Under the pieces are notes generated by a model, which was not told the DNA's origin, searched no databases, and saw only the letters and a list, made by a program, of their open reading frames with translations. This document shows positions 14,543 to 44,663 of a stretch of DNA of 64,000 nucleotides, in pieces; the stretch's first letter is position 1; every line of letters starts with the position of its first letter. The stretch is taken from sequence record PQ567651.1, one strand, 5' to 3'. The translations under genes and the position numbers were made by a program. The DNA comes from Escherichia phage cardinal.

Positions 14543-15000
14543 TTACACCTCTCATTAGTAGTTTGTTATGCGCGATATTGCATATTTTATGGAACACAGT
14601 GTACAGACATTTCTATTCAATGCAAGCATTATTTGCATCTTATAAATTTACGTCTCATGCCACACATCATACAGCGTCTTTTCATCTATTACAAGAACAG
14701 CAACCTAGGAACATCATTAATGGAGGGATTAGTATAGGGATTAGTATAGGATTTCCCTATCAATTATTCTATATATACCTAATATTTTTAACACACCCCT
14801 TTGTACATAATATAGACAAATAAATATCTATGCCACAAAAATTTTCTGGTATACCCGATTTATTTCGACACACCCCCTTTTCATAAGCGTAAAGTCAATA
14901 ATATCAATAACTTGCCGCAAAATACTGCTCGCTTGCGAGAGGTGCTTAACGCGATTTTCAGCGCCCCCCCGATTTCTGCCGACCGTCCCCCTCAAATATC

Positions 15001-15036
15001 AATGAGAATAATTATCATTTGCATTATCATTCAATG
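15001..15036. promoter_or_regulatory. Fur-box-like palindromic site(s)
   Basis: aatgagaataattatcatttgcattatcattcaatg; overlapping (n)AT(a/t)AT hexamers. Confidence 0.4.
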
Positions 15037-15198
15037 ACTTATAAGACTTTTGATTATTTTCTGAGCAAGAAAGGTACTACTCACAACAAAACAGATAAAT
15101 TCTAAGTAAATCAATGGCTTGGCAAGTCTAAACATCTATATACACCTTGCCAAATGAAATGATCTGGCGTGAAATAGTGCCACCCGTGGAAGATAGCT

Positions 15199-15217
15199 GA
15201 TAATGATTATCATTTGC
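15199..15217. promoter_or_regulatory. Fur-box-like 19-mer
   Basis: GATAATGATTATCATTTGC vs E. coli Fur consensus GATAATGATAATCATTATC (16/19). Confidence 0.45.
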
Positions 15218-15450
15218 ATACTTTCTGTACTATAAAACCGACTAAAAATCAAGATAATTCTGATTTATTGCGCTTTTAAGAGAGTAGGCTCAACAAATAA
15301 CAACAAATGAGGTATGTTATAGGGGCAATAGTATGAAAAATCATCTATTCAGATGTAAATAATTTTGCGCAATAGTGGTAATATTTTTCTTGACAAGAAA
15401 GATTTCTTTGTGTGCACATAGCGCCCCTGGAGGGTGGCGCATTATGATCA

Positions 15451-15504
15451 TCAGTGTCATTATTCATTTCAGTGTCATTATTCATTTCAGTGTCATTATT
15501 CACC
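15451..15504. repeat. tandem direct repeat, 3 x 18 bp
   Basis: tcagtgtcattattcatt repeated three times head-to-tail. Confidence 0.9.
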
Positions 15505-15604
15505 ATGTTTATTATTGCATAGCTTATTATATGGAGCTTATATTATAGCCAATGTTCTAAACATTAGCTAATAATAACGCACCGCAACAATGTAAGGGAT
15601 ACAA

Positions 15605-15745
15605 TATACCATGTATATTGTTGCGCTTGCAATTGTTGCAAGCTACATAAGCACAAATAATAACTATCGGTGATGGTTATTATGTGGGGTGTGTAGTTGC
15701 GTTATTATTAGCCGCCTATGTGTCCGGCATAGGCTGCTAATGATA
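15605..15745. repeat. inverted-repeat cluster
   Basis: gcttgcaa-ttg-ttgcaagc palindrome and gccgcctatg...cataggctgc hairpin. Confidence 0.6.
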
Positions 15746-15779
15746 CGCTTGCGAATTATATTTCTTGTTATAGTTATTG

Positions 15780-16203
15780 TATGGAATGATTACTACATGA
15801 AATGGTTACTGTATGAAATGATTATCTAAGTAATAGATAGGAAGGTAAAGATTAGATCATAAATAGATAGGATGTGAATTATTTAGTAATGTTACTAACA
15901 ATTTAATAGTTACTTTGTGCAACAATTCGATAGATTATAATTGTAGTTTTAAGGGTTAGATAGATTATATTTAGCTTAGTAATGATTTATATTAGTTATT
16001 ATTGTTTAATACAATGTTATCAATGAGATAGTAACAGTAAGTTATAAATAAAGGTGAGATAATTAGTTTTAATTTAGTTAGATAACTTATTATTTTATAG
16101 GTTAGATGGTCTTAAGTTAAGAATGATTCTCATTATTGCATTATGCAATTTATTGCATAAATAATCAGCTATAAATAAGAATGATTATCATTTAAGAGGA
16201 AAG
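15780..16203. repeat. AT-rich iteron-like region with Fur-box-like sites near 3' end
   Basis: repeated tagatag(g) and atgaaatg(g/a)tta motifs; agaatgattctcattattgc and agaatgattatcattta near 16120-16203. Confidence 0.5.
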
Positions 16204-16402
16204 ACAAGAAAAAGGCTGTTTTTGCCAGGTAATTACATGAAGAAATTAAAAATAAGCGGTCTAAAACACGTTGTAAGCGCCTTATGATCTTCATGGTATG
16301 GTTGTTCATCTGCTCCTTGATTAGCTCGATACCGCGATCTATTCACTTTTTTCGGTGAACGTTTTTGATAGGTAAAAGCTATCATCTTTATTTAGGTAAA
16401 AA

Positions 16403-16430
16403 GAAAGGGCGCAATAAGCGCCCTTGTTTG
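16403..16430 (-). terminator. hairpin terminator after gene 16440-16811
   Basis: aagggcgc-aataa-gcgccctt plus T-run on minus strand. Confidence 0.5.
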
Positions 16431-16439
16431 AAATGTTAT

Positions 16440-16811
16440 TTACTGATAAGCTGGATCGTTTGTTATATCAATCCAATGAGATAAATTAATTTTATTTTTT
16501 GCTTTCATTTTCTCGATCAAACGTTCGGCTAATGTTTCTGAACGAATATAAACATGCTCGCTAAAATCTTGCCCCGTTTCTTCGTCGATCATTTCTCTAT
16601 ATTCAACCTTGCCGATAAACGCATAAGTTTTACCCGTGTACCAGTTATGTAAATGGATCTCGCATTTATAATCATCGCTATACCCTTCGGTTGTTCTAAC
16701 TTCAACCAAGTCACCTTTAAACACTGATAAGCACCACATAGGATCACGATCTACAGCGCCGTTAAAATCTTTACCGTTTACAGTAGCCGCCAGGTTGATG
16801 ATATTGCTCAT
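16440..16811 (-). CDS. hypothetical protein
   Basis: 123-aa ORF with GAGGAA RBS. Confidence 0.55.
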   Translation of the reverse strand: MSNIINLAATVNGKDFNGAVDRDPMWCLSVFKGDLVEVRTTEGYSDDYKCEIHLHNWYTGKTYAFIGKVEYREMIDEETGQDFSEHVYIRSETLAERLIEKMKAKNKINLSHWIDITNDPAYQ

Positions 16812-24785: not shown

Positions 24786-25169
24786 AGTGTGCGCCTTATA
24801 GAATGATTGAAACAACAATTGCTACAGTGATCCACACTGGAACGGCTAACAAAATAGCGTTAATCGTTCCAACCGTCAAGCTGTTTTCTTTCTTGATCAT
24901 CGTTATCAACCTTTTATAAGTAATGTTATTGTGACGGTGGATTGTGGAGATCCTCACCTTTGCCCGTCCTGCATTGCGCCCTCCTTTTGTTTATTGTCGT
25001 TGTGCCTCGCCCCCCTCGACAAGATGAATAATACGCTACCAGGTGAGGAACGTCAACCCCTTTTTTAATCTTTTTTTCATTTCTTTTTTTTGCTTGCTAT
25101 CTATAAAGGAAAGGGCTATTATCTTTCTACCACGCCAACCAGGGCGCACATCAAAGAAAGGGCGATACC

Positions 25170-25436
25170 ATGACAAATACTACTTTACACCTCATGCACT
25201 CATTAGGCTGGCAAGGCGGCACGGTGCACCAGGTAGCAAGCGCAACGGGCTTAAAGGTTGAAACCGTTCTCAACCTGGGCGATCATAAGGTGGAAGAAAT
25301 AGATCATTTTGATACGTTCGCAAATGGTTATCTATGGGCTTGCAGTGGCGGCGGGGAAAGCAAGATCCCACCAGGGGCGCGGGGTGATATATATTTTTGG
25401 TTAGGTGTCCTATCCTGGCAAGAAAACAAAAAATAA
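25170..25436 (+). CDS. hypothetical protein
   Basis: 88-aa ORF with AAAGAAAGGG RBS; TTGCTA-N17-TATTAT upstream. Confidence 0.45.
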   Translation: MTNTTLHLMHSLGWQGGTVHQVASATGLKVETVLNLGDHKVEEIDHFDTFANGYLWACSGGGESKIPPGARGDIYFWLGVLSWQENKK

Positions 25437-25437
25437 T

Positions 25438-25472
25438 ATTGACAAGCCCAGGGATCGGGCTTATACTGTTTT
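25438..25472 (+). promoter_or_regulatory. sigma70-like promoter with palindrome in spacer
   Basis: TTGACA-agcccagggatcgggct-TATACT; spacer is an inverted repeat. Confidence 0.55.
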
Positions 25473-25586
25473 ACATACAGAAGAGGAAGCGCCACCCCCA
25501 CGGCGTAAAGGCGGGGCTAACATACCAGGGCACTACTGGTTGGAAGGTTGATCGCTGGTACAACGTATTTACAAAGGAGGTTAGCA

Positions 25587-26180
25587 ATGAAAAAAGTTTT
25601 TGGAGTAGGCATTAACGATAGTGCAAAGCCGATCAAAGGTTGTCGATTCTATGCAACATGGCGCAACATGTTACAACGTTGTTATAGTGAATCATATCAG
25701 GACAAAAGGCCATCTTATAAAGGTTGTAGTGTTTGTGATGAATGGTTGACGTTTAGCACTTTTCGTGCTTGGATGGAACAGCAGGATCACCAGGGAAAAC
25801 AATTAGATAAAGATATAATAACACCGGGTAATAAACTCTATTGTCCTGATCGTTGCGTATTTGTAACGCAAGAAATGAATAGTTTGTTAACAGTTACAAA
25901 GAGTAACAAAGGGGATCATCCTTTGGGTGTTTCATTTTTGAATCATAAACCATTGCCGCGCCCTTATTTAGCAACAATACGTTATAATAACGTAGTGGAA
26001 AGATTAGGGTACTATGTAGATCCTTTATCCGCTCATTTGGCCTGGAATAGGCGCAAACGTGAAATAATCATAGAGATTATTAGTAATGAAACGGATTCAA
26101 GGATCGCCGCTGGCTTGGCTTTACGTGTTGACGCTCTCGATCTGGCTTATGAAAATAAAGCGGAAATAACTTGCTTATGA
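25587..26180 (+). CDS. putative homing-endonuclease-like protein with AP2-type DNA-binding domain
   Basis: N-terminal YATWRNMLQRCY...CDEWLTFSTFRAWM and AP2-like YLATIRYNNVVERLGYYVDPLSAHLAWN; AAAGGAGG RBS. Confidence 0.4.
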   Translation: MKKVFGVGINDSAKPIKGCRFYATWRNMLQRCYSESYQDKRPSYKGCSVCDEWLTFSTFRAWMEQQDHQGKQLDKDIITPGNKLYCPDRCVFVTQEMNSLLTVTKSNKGDHPLGVSFLNHKPLPRPYLATIRYNNVVERLGYYVDPLSAHLAWNRRKREIIIEIISNETDSRIAAGLALRVDALDLAYENKAEITCL

Positions 26181-26184
26181 CGCT

Positions 26185-26217
26185 TGACAAGCGCCCGACA
26201 AGGGCGCATAATCTCTT
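26185..26217 (+). promoter_or_regulatory. sigma70-like promoter with palindrome in spacer
   Basis: TTGACA-agcgcccgacaagggcg-CATAAT; gcgccc...gggcgc inverted repeat. Confidence 0.5.
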
Positions 26218-26435
26218 ACATAGACAGGAACGCCTACCAATGGCGCTAAACTTGGTGATGATAGCCGCAGGGCATCGACAGCTATAATCGCCGGTAGCTC
26301 GTCTAAAATAAATTTGTAAAGAAATGTAAAGATAAAAATAATCGCTTGCTTTTGTTGTTGGTTATGCTATTCTTATTGTATGGCGAGGGGACACGGGAGC
26401 GCGAGACAAACACCGCCCCTGCGCGTTATTTTCTA

Positions 26436-26550
26436 AATGAGAAAATTCTCATTTGCTAATGATTCTCATTCTCTTACTGAGAATGATTATCACTTACATA
26501 ATTAAATGATAATGATTCTCATTTACAAATGAGAATGATTATCATACGCA
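26436..26550. promoter_or_regulatory. cluster of Fur-box-like palindromes
   Basis: aaatgagaaaattctcattt, aatgattctcattctc, gagaatgattatcac, gataatgattctcattta, gagaatgattatcatacg. Confidence 0.45.
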
Positions 26551-26564
26551 TACCTATAAAAACA

Positions 26565-26775
26565 CGAAATTGAACTTTTCATTTTTGATTTTTCTACGGA
26601 AAAAGGCAAAAAAACTTTAAATAAACTGGGGAATTTTTAAAAAATTGAAGTTTTCATTTTCAAAATCTGGATAGAAATACGTACAAAAACTTTAAATAAT
26701 TTTGACCAAACTTGAACTTTTCATTTTCAAAATTTGTACCCAAAAATCTGTAAAAACTTTAAATAATTTTGTACT
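26565..26775. repeat. three ~65-bp imperfect direct repeats
   Basis: units start aaattgaa(c/g)ttttcatttt... and end ...aaaaactttaaataa at about 26568, 26642, 26711. Confidence 0.8.
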
Positions 26776-27082
26776 TTTTATAAAAATGATTTTACTGTTC
26801 TGTTATAAGTAGTAGTTAAGAGATAGTATGCCTTTTAAAGATCAGATACCATAGTCAAACAAACAAATTAAATACTTTATTAACAGAGTACAGAATAATA
26901 TTTACTCTGGATATATTATTCAGAGGGTGGATTTCCGTACATGAAACCCACACCCCTTTTTATAAAAATAAAAATTTTCAAAATATCAGTAAATATCAGA
27001 TTGTGCTTTTAGATAAACAGCAAGGTCTGTATGCCATTTTCCTAAAAGATTTTGTCCTTTCCAACAGTCCTTATTTTCCACA

Positions 27083-27538
27083 TCACGATCCCACATTCCC
27101 ATTTTTGATACCATAAATAGAATCATAAGGGCTTGCCTCTACGAACTCCTTATCTGCGTAAGCGATAAGTTTATTTTTGAGATCTTCATTTTGTGTGTAT
27201 TTAAGATACAAACCACGTTTGACAATCTTCTCCCGTAAAGAAGTCCAGGTATCTTCATCATAATCTTTAACTAATCTGCCTAGACGTTTATAATATGCTT
27301 GTTCTTTTTCTCCTGTATATCTTAGATCTCCGGTTAAAATAGAAGATGCAATATTGTAATCATAAAACAAACATGCTTTTCTCCACATCATATATTGTTC
27401 CACACAAGTAAATTCGACAGAACTTGTGATAGAATTATTATACTTGGGAGCTAAAGGTTCAATAAAAGATGATAGATACCAGTTGCTAAATTCATCTTTT
27501 GCCGAGAAAAAGAACACATACTTGTCAGTAATCCGCAT
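27083..27538 (-). CDS. NADAR (YbiA-like) domain protein
   Basis: YVFFFSAKDEFSNWYLS, FTCVEQYMMWRKACLF, EFVEASPYDSIYGIKNG align with E. coli YbiA motifs. Confidence 0.75.
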   Translation of the reverse strand: MRITDKYVFFFSAKDEFSNWYLSSFIEPLAPKYNNSITSSVEFTCVEQYMMWRKACLFYDYNIASSILTGDLRYTGEKEQAYYKRLGRLVKDYDEDTWTSLREKIVKRGLYLKYTQNEDLKNKLIAYADKEFVEASPYDSIYGIKNGNVGS

Positions 27539-28936
27539 TTACACCTCCTTATTGTATACTAATTTGCCACCATATTGTGTAACAATTTTTTGAAGATTTT
27601 CCAAATCAGAAACACTTACTGTTTCTGTATGACCATCTTTCAACTCTCTTGCCGTTAAAATACCAGTTTTTAATTTTTTCTTTATAGCTCTTTCAGCAGC
27701 CTTACATTGTTTCACTGTGCTAAAATCATATAAACAAATACGCTCCATAGGAAACATATTACAGCTATTTTGACGTTTTAATCGACTATCACTATTTTTA
27801 GCTATACCAAACTTAAGAGCAACTATAATATTATCATCCTTAACAATATTAATATATAACTGCTGCTGACTATGACCAGCACACATAGGACAACCTCGAC
27901 CGTGGCTTAATAAGGCATTAGCCCTCCCTGTCTGTTCCCCATGCACAAGACAAAGATATTTAAACTTACCGTGACTTCTAGACGGTTTACCGATCCAACC
28001 TACCCAGACATACCCTTTCCCTTCTACTTCCTTTTTTACCCTGTAGGTAATCTGATTTTCTGTATAGTGATAACTAGTTGCACAGCGGCAAGGGATACTT
28101 CCTTGTTTTAGGGGCCACCCTTTAGAGTAAAATTTACCATCGCAAACACCTGCTTGAACATATTCATCATGGGAGCAAACAGGACACTCAACCATCCATA
28201 CTGCATCACGCTTGTTACGTTTCCCTGTATTGGTGAAGATAGTGCCTTCCTTAAATTTCCCTGTAGAAAAGAAATCTGCAATATGTTGATCGTCGGACAT
28301 TGTTAGTGCCTTCCTTGTATTCTCATACCTACATAAAGGACAACCATAACCACGTTTAAAATTGTTAATACTTGTAGTATCCCATTTATAACCACAGTGA
28401 CACAACAAATCAAGTTTTGTTTTATGTCCTTTCCATTTTCCAACGTACCCTAACACCTGATACCCCTTCTTCTGTGCTATCTCTTCCAAGATCGGTAATT
28501 CTGTTTCCCATGCTAACGGTTTATTACTTGCACATGCCGGACAACCACGTCCATTCCTAAAATCAATAATGTTTGTGGTGTTCCACTCTCCATGTTTAGG
28601 GCAAATTATGCGAATTTTTGTTCGCACACCTCGCCACTCCTCGGCAAGACCTATAAAAGTAAACCCTCTTTCTTTAGCAATATCAACAAGGGAGATACAT
28701 TCCTTTTCTTCTGTTACTTTTCTATGACCATTGCAATCGGAGCAACATTTACCGCCTTTAGTTTTAAATACATTGATTATGGTACTTTCCCACTCTCCAT
28801 GATCAGAGCAAGATAGCTTAAGCCTAGTCCTGCTACCTTTCCATTCACCAACATAACCCAAGATTTGAATATTGTGATTTTTAGCAAGGGGTATTAATTC
28901 TTCTTTATATTGTTCCCATGATTTTAGTGCTACCAT
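27539..28936 (-). CDS. Cys/His-rich triple-repeat protein with C-terminal GIY-YIG-like (T5orf172-type) domain
   Basis: three modules of form GYVGxWKG..TKL.L.C..HGEW.T..I..F..G.GCP.C; C-terminal LYINIVKDDNIIVALKFGIAKNSDSRLKRQ. Confidence 0.45.
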   Translation of the reverse strand: MVALKSWEQYKEELIPLAKNHNIQILGYVGEWKGSRTRLKLSCSDHGEWESTIINVFKTKGGKCCSDCNGHRKVTEEKECISLVDIAKERGFTFIGLAEEWRGVRTKIRIICPKHGEWNTTNIIDFRNGRGCPACASNKPLAWETELPILEEIAQKKGYQVLGYVGKWKGHKTKLDLLCHCGYKWDTTSINNFKRGYGCPLCRYENTRKALTMSDDQHIADFFSTGKFKEGTIFTNTGKRNKRDAVWMVECPVCSHDEYVQAGVCDGKFYSKGWPLKQGSIPCRCATSYHYTENQITYRVKKEVEGKGYVWVGWIGKPSRSHGKFKYLCLVHGEQTGRANALLSHGRGCPMCAGHSQQQLYINIVKDDNIIVALKFGIAKNSDSRLKRQNSCNMFPMERICLYDFSTVKQCKAAERAIKKKLKTGILTARELKDGHTETVSVSDLENLQKIVTQYGGKLVYNKEV

Positions 28937-42583: not shown

Positions 42584-43441
42584 ATGACCCAAAAACTATA
42601 TGAGGATGTAATCGGATTCCTCGAACAAACATCCGAAGAATTTACTCGTGAAAATGCAAACAAACCTGCAATGATTGTTAATACTCACCGAGATTTACTA
42701 GCAGGTATCCTAAGCAAGCACATGGCAATGACCCATATTTTACCTGAAGATTTAGCAGAATGGCATAAAAGTGGGTATGGTCACATCCACGATTTAGATT
42801 ATTTACTCTCACCTTTAACTAATTGTTGCCTGGTAAATTACCAAGATATGCTTGAGAACGGTTTCCGTATTGGTAATGCACATATTGAAAAACCAAAATC
42901 TATCGGTGTAGCGACTACTGTCCTAACTCAAATTATTCAAGCAGTAGCTTCTAGCCAATATGGTGGACAAACTTGTGCACATGTTGATACTGGGCTTAGT
43001 CAATACGTTAAAGCAAGTTTTAATAAAATATATGCCGATGTTGGCGATTATGATATTGCTATGCGTATGGTAGATAAACAGGTCTATGATGCAATGCAAA
43101 CTTTAATCTACCAGGTGAACACTCTAATGAGTGTAAATGGTCAGTCACCTTTTATAACAATTAGTTTAGGTTTGGATACCTCTGCTTTTGGTAGAATGAT
43201 CACTAAAAACTACCTAATGGTGCACAAACAAGGATTGGGAAAAGATAGGGTAACTCCTGTGTTTCCTAAAGTTATCTTCTTCTTGGAAGATGGTGTTAAC
43301 ATGAAAGCTGGCGATCCAAACTATGATTTGAAGCAACTGGCAATGGAGTGTTGTGCTGAACGCATTTATCCTGATTTTATCTCTGTACCTTTAAACAAAG
43401 AAGTTACAGGATCTTCAGATGGTCGCGTCACAAGCATGGGT
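42584..43441 (+). CDS. nrdD: anaerobic ribonucleoside-triphosphate reductase NrdD, exon 1 (3' boundary approximate)
   Basis: N-terminal NrdD-like sequence ...GYGHIHDLDY...; frame hits stop inside intron. Confidence 0.75.
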
Positions 43442-43688
43442 AAACTATAACTGCTCATGTAAAATCTGCCTAAACGGGGGAACTCTCAACGAGACAATCC
43501 CGTGCTAAACGTAACAGAACTCCCAACACAGAAGAAGGGGGGTACTATTACGAAATGCCTAACGACTAGCTGTGATGAATGTAGCAGCGTAGGGTGTAAG
43601 CCTATGACACCCCAAATGGTAGACATGCTTTAAGCATGAAGATATAGTCTGATCTGCATGGTGACATGCAGCAGCACGTAATGGTGCG
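43442..43688 (+). ncRNA. group I self-splicing intron (ORF-less) in nrdD; boundaries approximate
   Basis: aaatctgcctaaacggggg...gagacaatcccgtgctaaa...aatgcctaacgacta...aagatatagtctga.ctgcatggtgacatgcag resembles the T4 nrdD (sunY) intron core as recalled from memory. Confidence 0.7.
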
Positions 43689-44663
43689 GGAGTGGCCTTG
43701 CGAGCCACTTTGAACATAATGTGTAGAAGTTTCTTGTCATACTATGCAACAGAGCAAGGTGAAAAATATGATGGTCGTTTCAACTTAGGCGTAGTTTCTT
43801 TAAACTTACCTATCATTGCAGCAGAGTCCCGTGAAAAGGGCATCTTATTTACTGAACTGTTGGAACAACATATGGAGATGGCGTATAAGGCACATATGCT
43901 ACGTGTTAACCGTATTAGACATACCAAAGCATCTCAAAACCCTACATTGTTTATGGAAGGGGCTTTAGCTCGACTAGAAGCTAATGAAGAGATTGGTAAA
44001 CTATTTGAAGGTGGTTATGCCTCTATTAGTATCGGTTATGTAGGTTTAGCAGAAGCTATGGAGATTTTATACCCAAATAACACCAATCCAAAAGCAATGG
44101 GTAAAAACATCCTTCAATATATGAAGGATATCTGTTGCACATTTAAAGAACGTTCTGGTTTAGCTTTTAGTTTGTATGGAACACCAGCAGAATCCTTGTG
44201 CTATAAATTTGCCAAAGCGTTAAATGATCGCTATCCTGGCTCTATTGATCGTGACTATTTGACAAACTCTTTCCATCAACCTGTATGGATGCACACTACC
44301 CCGTTCCAAAAGTGGGATTATGAGGAAGGTTTTGCACAAATTAGTAATGGTGGGAACATAGGTTATGTAGAAACACCAAACCTTAAAAATAACTTGCAAG
44401 CACTGGAAACTCTTGTAGATTATGCCTACAATAAAATTCCTTATTTTGGCGTGAACCAACCTGTAGATCAGTGTTTCAAATGTGGTTTTCATGGTGAATT
44501 TAAGGCAACAGCTAAAGGCTTCGAGTGTCCAAGTTGTGGAAATCATGAAGAAGAATCCATATCTGTGATCAGAAGAGTGTCAGGATACCTTTCTGCTCCT
44601 AACTCTCGCCCTTATAATAAAGGTAAGATGCAAGAGGTACTAGAAAGGGAGAAACACTTTTGA
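43689..44663 (+). CDS. nrdD: anaerobic ribonucleoside-triphosphate reductase NrdD, exon 2 (5' boundary approximate)
   Basis: NIMCRSF near exon start; C-terminal glycyl-radical motif RVSGYL and Zn site CFKCGFHG...CPSCG. Confidence 0.8.
   Translation, partial: GVALRATLNIMCRSFLSYYATEQGEKYDGRFNLGVVSLNLPIIAAESREKGILFTELLEQHMEMAYKAHMLRVNRIRHTKASQNPTLFMEGALARLEANEEIGKLFEGGYASISIGYVGLAEAMEILYPNNTNPKAMGKNILQYMKDICCTFKERSGLAFSLYGTPAESLCYKFAKALNDRYPGSIDRDYLTNSFHQPVWMHTTPFQKWDYEEGFAQISNGGNIGYVETPNLKNNLQALETLVDYAYNKIPYFGVNQPVDQCFKCGFHGEFKATAKGFECPSCGNHEEESISVIRRVSGYLSAPNSRPYNKGKMQEVLEREKHF

Follow-up and report, generated by a model that had tools for sequence, protein, structure and literature searches.

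Replication origins of the iteron-plus-unwinding-element type (lambda ori, P1 oriR and those of iteron plasmids) hold same-orientation direct repeats beside AT-rich DNA of low stability; the sequence of these repeats diverges between relatives while their number and layout are kept, and transcription is directed towards them. These traits, with transcription predicted from promoter-like sites, recur in the element described here, three direct repeats in non-coding DNA of Escherichia phage cardinal (sequence record PQ567651.1), of which we analyzed one strand of a 64,000-nucleotide stretch (the window; positions and the + strand refer to it). The repeats are part of a module whose likeliest, still putative, role is to be a place where proteins assemble, for example an origin of replication. 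Its units of 62–78 bp differ from the iterons of such origins, which measure 17–22 bp, and it lacks DnaA boxes, IHF sites and a recognisable initiator gene. The module also resembles promoter-dependent origins (the primary origin of T7, oriF and oriG of T4), where one or more promoters stand directly upstream of an AT-rich unwinding region and the transcript activates or primes replication. Unlike these, it has promoters of the host sigma-70 type with two conserved GC-rich elements and Fur-like operators ahead of them, and a three-repeat array separates promoter from AT-rich DNA.

Among described sequence landscapes the nearest is that of Repeat Region 3 in the terminal repeat of T5, the region of the injection stop signal, which is large, conserved and free of open reading frames (ORFs) and holds nested palindromes and direct repeats, including two of 66 bp (bioRxiv 10.1101/866236). 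The same paper, by Davison, reports a homing endonuclease gene inserted between Repeat Regions 1 and 2 of the terminal repeat, and it does not call the T5 palindromes Fur boxes. BLAST connected the palindrome stretch of the window with the equivalent region of T5-like Salmonella phages. The T5 region differs from the module in lying in a terminal repeat, in having paired DnaA boxes and different iterons (TGTGCAAATCCGACA, eight copies in the relative examined), and in its association with two-step injection.

A megablast search with 25500–27600 matched 138 phage records, the top ones being Escherichia phages of Justusliebigvirus with 97–98% identity; the window is that of a Justusliebigvirus (phi92-like) coliphage of the subfamily Stephanstirmvirinae, with outra, inny, alia and EmilieFrey/Bas61 as close records. 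In the literature searched we found no account of the module or of Fur boxes in these phages; searches on Fur boxes in lytic phages, and on origins or non-coding RNAs of the two subfamilies concerned (see below), gave nothing on this locus. A transposon-free intergenic region of ~2 kb has been reported for Bas54; it is probably a different locus, because it separates divergent genes.

The three repeats and their module

An earlier reading of this DNA, made from the letters alone (the sequence-only reading), had noted three imperfect tandem repeats of ~65 bp, and these are real. Tandem Repeats Finder reported 26641–26771 (period 67, 2.0 copies, 81% matches, score 178), and a repeat search gave three copies within 26567–26775, starting at 26567, 26642 and 26709, spaced by 75 and 67 bp and 66–72% identical over 79 nt. 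The identity sits mainly in two conserved boxes that flank a variable spacer of ~20 nt. Box 1 (TTGAACTTTTCATTTTC; AAATTGAAC/GTTTTCATTTTC...) occurs three times with at most one mismatch, and box 2 (AAAAACTTTAAATAA; ACAAAAACTTTAAATAATTTTG) occurs three times exactly; at these thresholds neither has a further occurrence in the 64-kb window. The core of box 2, AAAANTTTAAATAA, is the best-kept piece across three Stephanstirmvirinae genera. The box motifs were also missing upstream of late and structural genes in phage alia (1–50 kb), and being unique to the locus they do not represent a general promoter type. Box 2 as a late promoter, considered for the similarity of TTTAAATAA to T4 TATAAATA, was rejected on the same grounds. 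Sigma-70 promoters within the units were rejected too, as the units hold a single weak match (9 of 12). Inspection disposed of a CRISPR-like mini-array, with which neither the lengths of repeats and spacers nor the imperfection of the repeats agrees, and of short ORFs from the TTG of each box 1, which have no Shine-Dalgarno sequence and whose frames are lost in Phapecoctavirus. Nothing similar to the locus was found in E. coli genomes.

When seven Justusliebigvirus genomes were aligned, only 4 of 220 sites were variable across the repeats (26556–26775), none of them within box 1 or box 2. The corresponding counts were 12 of 120 in the Fur-box stretch (26436–26555), 17 of 190 after the repeats (26776–26965) and 6 of 115 at the 3′ end of the NADAR gene, and the repeats are about five-fold less variable than the flanking non-coding DNA. 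These counts show a tighter constraint on the repeats than on the DNA around them, in keeping with purifying selection. Conservation in related phages had been set beforehand as a test of the sequence-only reading; both the repeats and the Fur-like palindromes turned out to be kept in related genomes, so that the reading is not refuted on this count.

The repeats belong to a non-coding module of ~1.4 kb that is syntenic across Stephanstirmvirinae (phi92-like) and Vequintavirinae (rV5-like), with ~10 genera examined. The Stephanstirmvirinae compared were Phapecoctavirus (anhysbys, phAPEC8, EP57) and one Klebsiella phage, and the Vequintavirinae genera were Mydo-, Seuna-, Henuna-, Certre-, Avuna- and Vequintavirus; phiTE carries the module as well, at ~39 kb, and genomes that have it number ~250. 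On one strand the module runs from a small gene through promoter P1, whose spacer holds a GC hairpin, element A, TTTGTAAAGAnnTGTAAAGA, promoter P2 and element B to one to four or more Fur-like boxes, promoter P3 in most lineages, the three repeats, very AT-rich DNA and AAATATC(A/C) repeats.

Every lineage examined has exactly three units of ~62–78 bp, with 129–143 bp from first to third. The marker spacing is 75 + 67 bp in the window, alia and Klebsiella phage phi1_175008 (first to third 142 bp), 67 + 74 bp in Mydovirus (141 bp), 67 + 62/63 bp in Seunavirus (129–130 bp), 63 + 78 bp in Certrevirus (141 bp) and 74 + 65 bp in Vequintavirus (139 bp). In Phapecoctavirus, where the middle unit is degenerate, the first-to-third distance is 138 bp, and in Av-05 (Avunavirus), where the middle marker was not separately resolved, it is 142 bp. 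The Vequintavirinae units (AAAAATTTTTT...GAAAAATACGTTTTCAAAAC...CGATCGAGAACC) cannot be aligned with those of the window; number and geometry are the same.

Folded as RNA, the repeat units had z-scores of −0.06 to +1.0 on the + strand, no better than shuffled sequences. The fold of the whole putative transcript was no more stable than shuffles on both strands, and the three units shared no RNA structure on either. Rfam gave nothing with E < 1 on window positions 24800–27300 (four chance-level matches, E 1.1–9.5), nothing up to E 5 on three relatives with an uninterrupted locus, and nothing for the region at the gathering score; tRNA scans of the region found none. Inside the units there are loop-less palindromes (ATTTTCAAAAT in the window; GTTTTCAAAAC, ATTTTCGAAAAT and CTCGATCGAG in other genera), which would suit dimeric binders of double-stranded DNA and not RNA hairpins. 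Positions 26631–26880 (GC 21.6%) rank second in AT content among the 250-bp stretches of the window, and among close relatives the AT-rich stretch after the repeats keeps its composition and not its sequence, as expected of an unwinding element. The loop-less palindromes, the lack of an RNA fold, the low stability and the fixed number and spacing together favour a nucleoprotein assembly site that acts at the DNA level.

Promoters, Fur-like boxes and elements upstream of the repeats

The hexamers of P1 are kept across genera while its spacer sequence varies, and those of P2 are conserved in position with variable spacers (TTGATC/TATTAT, TTGCAA/TATATT, TTGACC/GATACT, TTGACA/CAATAT). Seuna-, Mydo-, Avuna- and Henunavirus have a clear P3 directed into the repeats, such as TTGACA-17-GAAAAT; in the window the P3 site matches the − strand equally, because it is palindromic. 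Conserved hexamers with variable spacers, as seen in P1, P2 and P3, are the pattern of real promoters, and all three lie on the + strand. The hairpin in the P1 spacer (25444–25462) also resembles a terminator of the 88-aa gene that precedes it.

Just before the repeats, the palindromes that had been likened to Fur boxes near 26436–26550 were confirmed as such matches, the four 7-1-7 boxes fitting the Fur consensus TGATAATnATTATCA with 1–2 mismatches and the best 19-mers agreeing with the classical Fur box GATAATGATAATCATTATC at 16 of 19 positions. The consensus has nine matches in the window where about one is expected, and seven of the nine fall within two non-coding regions; no match was found in 50 kb of phage alia that hold structural and replication genes. 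A related palindrome pattern matches eight times (0.53 expected), a count reached in none of 100 shuffles. Box number differs between relatives, phage arall having lost two by a 52-bp deletion in the Fur-box stretch. A pattern scan of IMG/VR returned 58 loci, of which 15, those carrying the element A signature, are true and all of the same phage groups, the remainder being chance matches; at least one Fur-like box lies 132–134 nt 3′ of element A (~160 nt in Justusliebigvirus-like loci) in 13 of these 15. Most Vequintavirinae have a Fur-like box with an almost invariant flank (aaatgagaatgattctcattcaac), and most have one ~25 bp upstream of the P3 −35 hexamer. A leftward promoter in the Fur boxes (TTGAAT-18-CAGAAT), seemingly conserved in Seunavirus, was rejected because its −10 is lost in Mydo-, Henuna-, Certre- and Justusliebigvirus.

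Fur-repressed promoters of E. coli, such as the aerobactin iucA operator and ryhB, likewise have overlapping GATAAT-type hexamers that fit both the 19-bp and the 7-1-7 consensus, at 15–17 of 19 positions, and the likeness extends to the array of the window boxes at 23–29-bp spacing over a −35/−10-like pair. Unlike iucA and ryhB, the boxes of the window stand in a virulent phage without an iron-related gene downstream, and Fur binding is putative. In Shewanella phage 1/40, from Baltic sea ice, a promoter, a sequence like element B and a Fur-like box with its flank (taaatgagaatgattctcattcaac) occur together (our locus L017, 1450–1640), the box and flank being identical to those of most Vequintavirinae examined (Seuna-, Henuna-, Certrevirus); element A and the three repeats are absent there. 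Salmonella phage PHZ191 (Epseptimavirus; locus L015, 1440–1680 and 1700–2310) has ~6–7 Fur-box-like repeats (taaatgagaatcatt...) adjoining two perfect DnaA boxes and eight TGTGCAAATCCGACA iterons in the non-coding region of its terminal repeat (injection stop signal). We regard it as a rather speculative idea that virulent enterobacterial phages of at least three groups (phi92-, rV5- and T5-like) have wired the host iron sensor Fur into conserved non-coding control regions: the Fur operators of phi92- and rV5-like phages would gate sigma-70 transcription into the three-site array and so couple replication or a long non-coding RNA to the iron status of the host, or the multiplying phage genomes would soak up Fur and thereby de-repress iron uptake for the phage ribonucleotide reductases.

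Element A is ~95 nt long and 80–89% identical across Stephanstirmvirinae and Vequintavirinae. Pairing was scored in 16 diverse sequences for a hairpin, a loop-to-3′ pairing and a variable second hairpin. The hairpin CGCC/GGCG is invariant and 88% of all cells are paired; three pairs change on both sides, a value seldom reached by shuffles. The loop-to-3′ pairing changes from CCC/GGG to CCAA/UUGG in the Erwinia-type copies and in the A′ copy of the window, an A:U pair becomes U:A in the Klebsiella phage, the second hairpin covaries, and the G:U pairs are consistent with the + strand. These changes lend modest support to a structured RNA, a hairpin with a pseudoknot, that would be transcribed from P1. 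Element A has no Rfam match, and in the loci around the ATCGCCGGTAG anchor (L001–L016) it is a candidate new structured RNA.

The resident copy of element A is interrupted in the window by a cassette that pairwise BLAST found to be missing in alia, inny and EmilieFrey. Its ORF matches the HNH endonuclease family PHROG 953 over the C-terminal half of the profile only, and the cassette is present at the same site in Raoultella phage Ro1, of another subfamily, with 87.6% identity over 761 bp. Such a distribution would be the expected product of a homing endonuclease aimed at a highly conserved sequence. The cassette changes how the sequence-only reading of this part is to be taken. The promoter with a palindrome in its spacer exists, as P1′, yet it is not ancestral and belongs to the insert missing in relatives. 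The ORF-free stretch of ~230 nt into which it was said to point, with a small RNA as a possible product, does end in a GC-rich hairpin and T-run (26383–26434); it consists, however, of two units and not one, namely the cassette promoter followed by element A′, and P2 followed by element B, to which the hairpin and T-run belong. A small RNA from element A is plausible on the pairing evidence above.

Element B can form a GC stem followed by UUAUUUUCU in the window; as a structured RNA it was rejected, its consensus fold being weak with an energy near zero. In Klebsiella phage K45PH128C2 (Mydovirus; locus L004, 2532–2685) tRNA-Ile and tRNA-Met are annotated over P2, element B and the Fur-box stretch. 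The two annotations are probably artefacts, as ARAGORN detects no tRNA in this part.

Table 1. Positions of the module features and adjoining elements in the window
Feature	Position	Strand	Description
88-aa gene	25170–25436	+	directly 5′ of the module; sole + strand gene within a block of − strand early genes
Promoter P1	25439–25467	+	TTGACA-17-TATACT, 11 of 12 hexamer matches; GC hairpin in spacer
Element A, resident copy	25468–25560	+	GC-rich; cut off at gatcgc by the insertion
Inserted cassette	25561–26286	+	HNH-endonuclease-like ORF 25548/25587–26180, promoter P1′, start of element A′
Promoter P1′	26184–26212	+	TTGACA-17-CATAAT; GC palindrome in spacer
Element A′	26213–26304	+	divergent second copy of A; resembles the type of Erwinia phage pEa_SNUABM_55 and Pectobacterium phage P7_Pc
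Direct repeat	26313–26332	+	TTTGTAAAGAAATGTAAAGA, direct repeat of TGTAAAGA; kept in nearly all lineages
Promoter P2	26346–26373	+	TTGCTT-16-TATTCT; weak in the window, near consensus in other genera
Element B	26380–26434	+	conserved GAGACAAACACC between GC stems; ends in UUAUUUUCU
Fur-box-like palindromes	26435–26544		one 7-0-7 (26435–26454); 7-1-7 boxes 26454–26468, 26478–26492, 26507–26521, 26530–26544
Candidate promoter P3	26516–26545	+	TTCTCA-18-TATCAT; weak; overlapped by two Fur boxes
Repeat unit 1	26567–26641 (75 bp)	+	box 1 26567–26591; spacer with TTTTTC-tacg-GAAAAA; box 2 26608–26627
Repeat unit 2	26642–26708 (67 bp)	+	box 1 with palindrome ATTTTCAAAAT; spacer; box 2 26683–26702
Repeat unit 3	26709–26775 (67 bp)	+	box 1; spacer; box 2 26750–26769
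Low-stability stretch	26671–26920		second least stable 250 bp of the window; overlaps unit 3 and DNA beyond
Two hairpins	26905–26963	+	second (26925–26963) followed by CCUUUUUAU; terminator-like end for + strand transcripts; z = −2.3
Repeat	26981–26999	+	AAATATCAG twice; AAATATC(A/C) repeats at the same position in Vequintavirinae

A candidate replication origin and competing readings

The reading that we favour, tentatively and with more doubt than belief, is a candidate replication origin: a phased three-site protein-binding array by easily melted DNA, entered by sigma-70 promoters and Fur operators. The three repeats would act at the DNA level as phased sites for a sequence-specific protein, which would probably be encoded by the phage and co-evolve with its sites. 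The bound sites may nucleate a nucleoprotein complex beside the most easily melted DNA of the region. This complex would stand at the end of a series of sigma-70 promoters (P1, P2 and mostly P3), all directed into it, and the host Fur operators just before or over the last promoter could let Fur modulate the incoming transcription. As an origin, the layout would unite repeated binding sites with an unwinding element and with transcription that activates or primes replication.

Several points weigh against this proposal. Replication initiation, transcription, protein binding and Fur binding are all processes that we infer, and repression of an origin promoter by Fur in the iron-replete state would have no obvious logic. 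At 62–78 bp the units are far above classical iterons; positions 25000–27000 have neither a DnaA box (at most one mismatch) nor the IHF consensus; and no recognisable initiator adjoins the module, the 88-aa protein having no structural relative. P3 is weak and strand-ambiguous in the window and was not found in Phapecoctavirus. GC skew tracks transcription and is uninformative on an origin, and a similar AT-rich region with Fur boxes at 14.8–16.4 kb means that the locus is not the sole candidate.

Much of the same layout could be read at the level of RNA, as a Fur-controlled transcript of ~400–600 nt from P2 or P3 to the hairpin at ~26963, whose three AU-rich modules would bind a host or phage factor such as Hfq, ProQ or RNase E or would mimic host RNA in the manner of the phiTE pseudo-ToxI. 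We hold this possible but doubtful. The conserved + strand promoters directed into the repeats, the terminator-like + strand hairpin with its U-run at 26925–26963, the Fur boxes that overlap or precede the last promoter and the lack of an ORF in the stretch all fit it, and the relative phiTE defeats ToxIN by a tandem-repeat RNA (PMC3475682). The ToxI and pseudo-ToxI repeats of type III toxin-antitoxin systems share with the module tandem direct repeats in non-coding DNA of the same phage group and an upstream promoter. They are, however, 36-nt repeats that fold into pseudoknots at another locus, whereas the units here measure 62–78 nt (period 67–75 in the window) and have no stable or common fold on either strand; their loop-less palindromes and conserved spacing indicate double-stranded DNA, and the locus has neither an Rfam match nor similarity to E. 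coli genomes. Membership in ToxI was rejected, as ToxI similarity is missing from the homologous phiTE locus and there is no downstream ORF, and so was identity with the phiTE escape locus, since pseudo-ToxI lies at 106.7 kb in phiTE and the module elsewhere, at ~39 kb.

Another reading makes the module a region for transcription control or for capture of host factors, its units being either operators through which an early regulator of the phage would set the boundary between two leftward early operons or, with the Fur boxes, a sink for host DNA-binding proteins (Fur, H-NS-like), where titration of Fur would de-repress iron uptake for the iron-dependent phage ribonucleotide reductases. We think it unlikely. 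The clustering of the Fur consensus matches in two non-coding regions, far beyond the one or so expected and with none in 50 kb of alia, speaks for it, as do the box number that varies between relatives in the way expected of a dosage element, the likeness between box 1 and a right-hand Fur half-box plus flank (TTTTCATTTTCAAAAT vs TTCTCATTTACAAAT), the phage's nrdD plus another reductase gene, and the ~6–7 similar boxes arrayed in the terminal-repeat non-coding region of T5-like phages. A pure sink, on the other hand, would need neither exactly three units at a fixed spacing in ~10 genera nor conserved promoters reading in; between subfamilies with shared hosts the unit motifs differ completely, which makes a conserved host protein an improbable ligand, and no regulator was identified. 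A packaging recognition site bound by the small terminase subunit is very unlikely. Lambda cosB has three R sites, a layout that three phased repeats in ~140 bp resemble, and the GATC-containing palindromes of the Vequintavirinae units recall the pac site of P1, which is methylation-sensitive. Yet early genes surround the locus, the structural and terminase genes are a long way off, the repeat module has no IHF consensus, and the 14.8–15.4 kb region described below is a better candidate for genome ends; phiTE, moreover, is reported to be terminally redundant and circularly permuted (PMC3475682). Scarcely credible, finally, is a neutral local triplication without function. Slippage and duplication arise easily in AT-rich non-coding DNA, and overall unit identity is just 66–72%; the conservation data already contradict this reading, number and spacing being the same in two subfamilies despite complete sequence turnover and variability being five-fold below that of adjacent non-coding DNA.

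Neighbouring loci and significance of the module

The repeat locus is a non-coding stretch that separates two blocks of leftward early genes, of which the one to the right (on the + strand) encodes a helicase, ribonucleotide reductases and a primase/helicase; this setting in the early region speaks for the origin reading. In several lineages a + strand gene stands in the equivalent position 5′ of the module. Its 88-aa product in the window has no family annotation; the structure model is confident and finds no structural relative, and an obvious DNA-binding protein was rejected for this neighbour. Beyond the module, at 26986–27538, lies a NADAR/YbiA-like gene that is annotated as a single 552-nt gene in alia and EmilieFrey and appears in the window as two overlapping ORFs (27083–27538 and 26986–27126); this points to a frameshift, or to an error in sequencing, close to the 3′ end of the gene.

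A second ORF-free region of the window, 14800–16450, holds four Fur-like boxes at 15003, 15198 (perfect), 16118 and 16176, a perfect repeat of three 18-bp copies (15451–15502) and the 250 bp with the highest AT content in the window (15851–16100, GC 20%). The start or end of more than 10 independent GenBank records of related phages falls within ~14820–15380, a sign of genome ends, of a site for packaging or of a linearisation point that the records share. Further on, Rfam identified a group I intron at 43396–43671 (72 bits, E = 2e-16) between the ORFs 42584–43450 and 43692–44663; both match the anaerobic ribonucleotide reductase NrdD, so that nrdD is split by the intron, as in T4.

The phi92-like and rV5-like groups consist of coliphages with a broad host range, which many of the genome reports retrieved present as candidates for therapy or biocontrol; the literature searched yielded no account of replication origins or of early regulatory circuitry in these phages. 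The module is among the most conserved non-coding stretches of these genomes, with an element A whose conservation is sufficient for a homing endonuclease to target it. Should the array be the origin, it would provide a defined cis element for engineering and for studies of replication. If Fur binds, these phages would clearly exemplify how a strictly lytic phage can read, or manipulate, the iron status of its host, and would offer a fresh lead on the still unexplained repeat region in the terminal repeat of T5.

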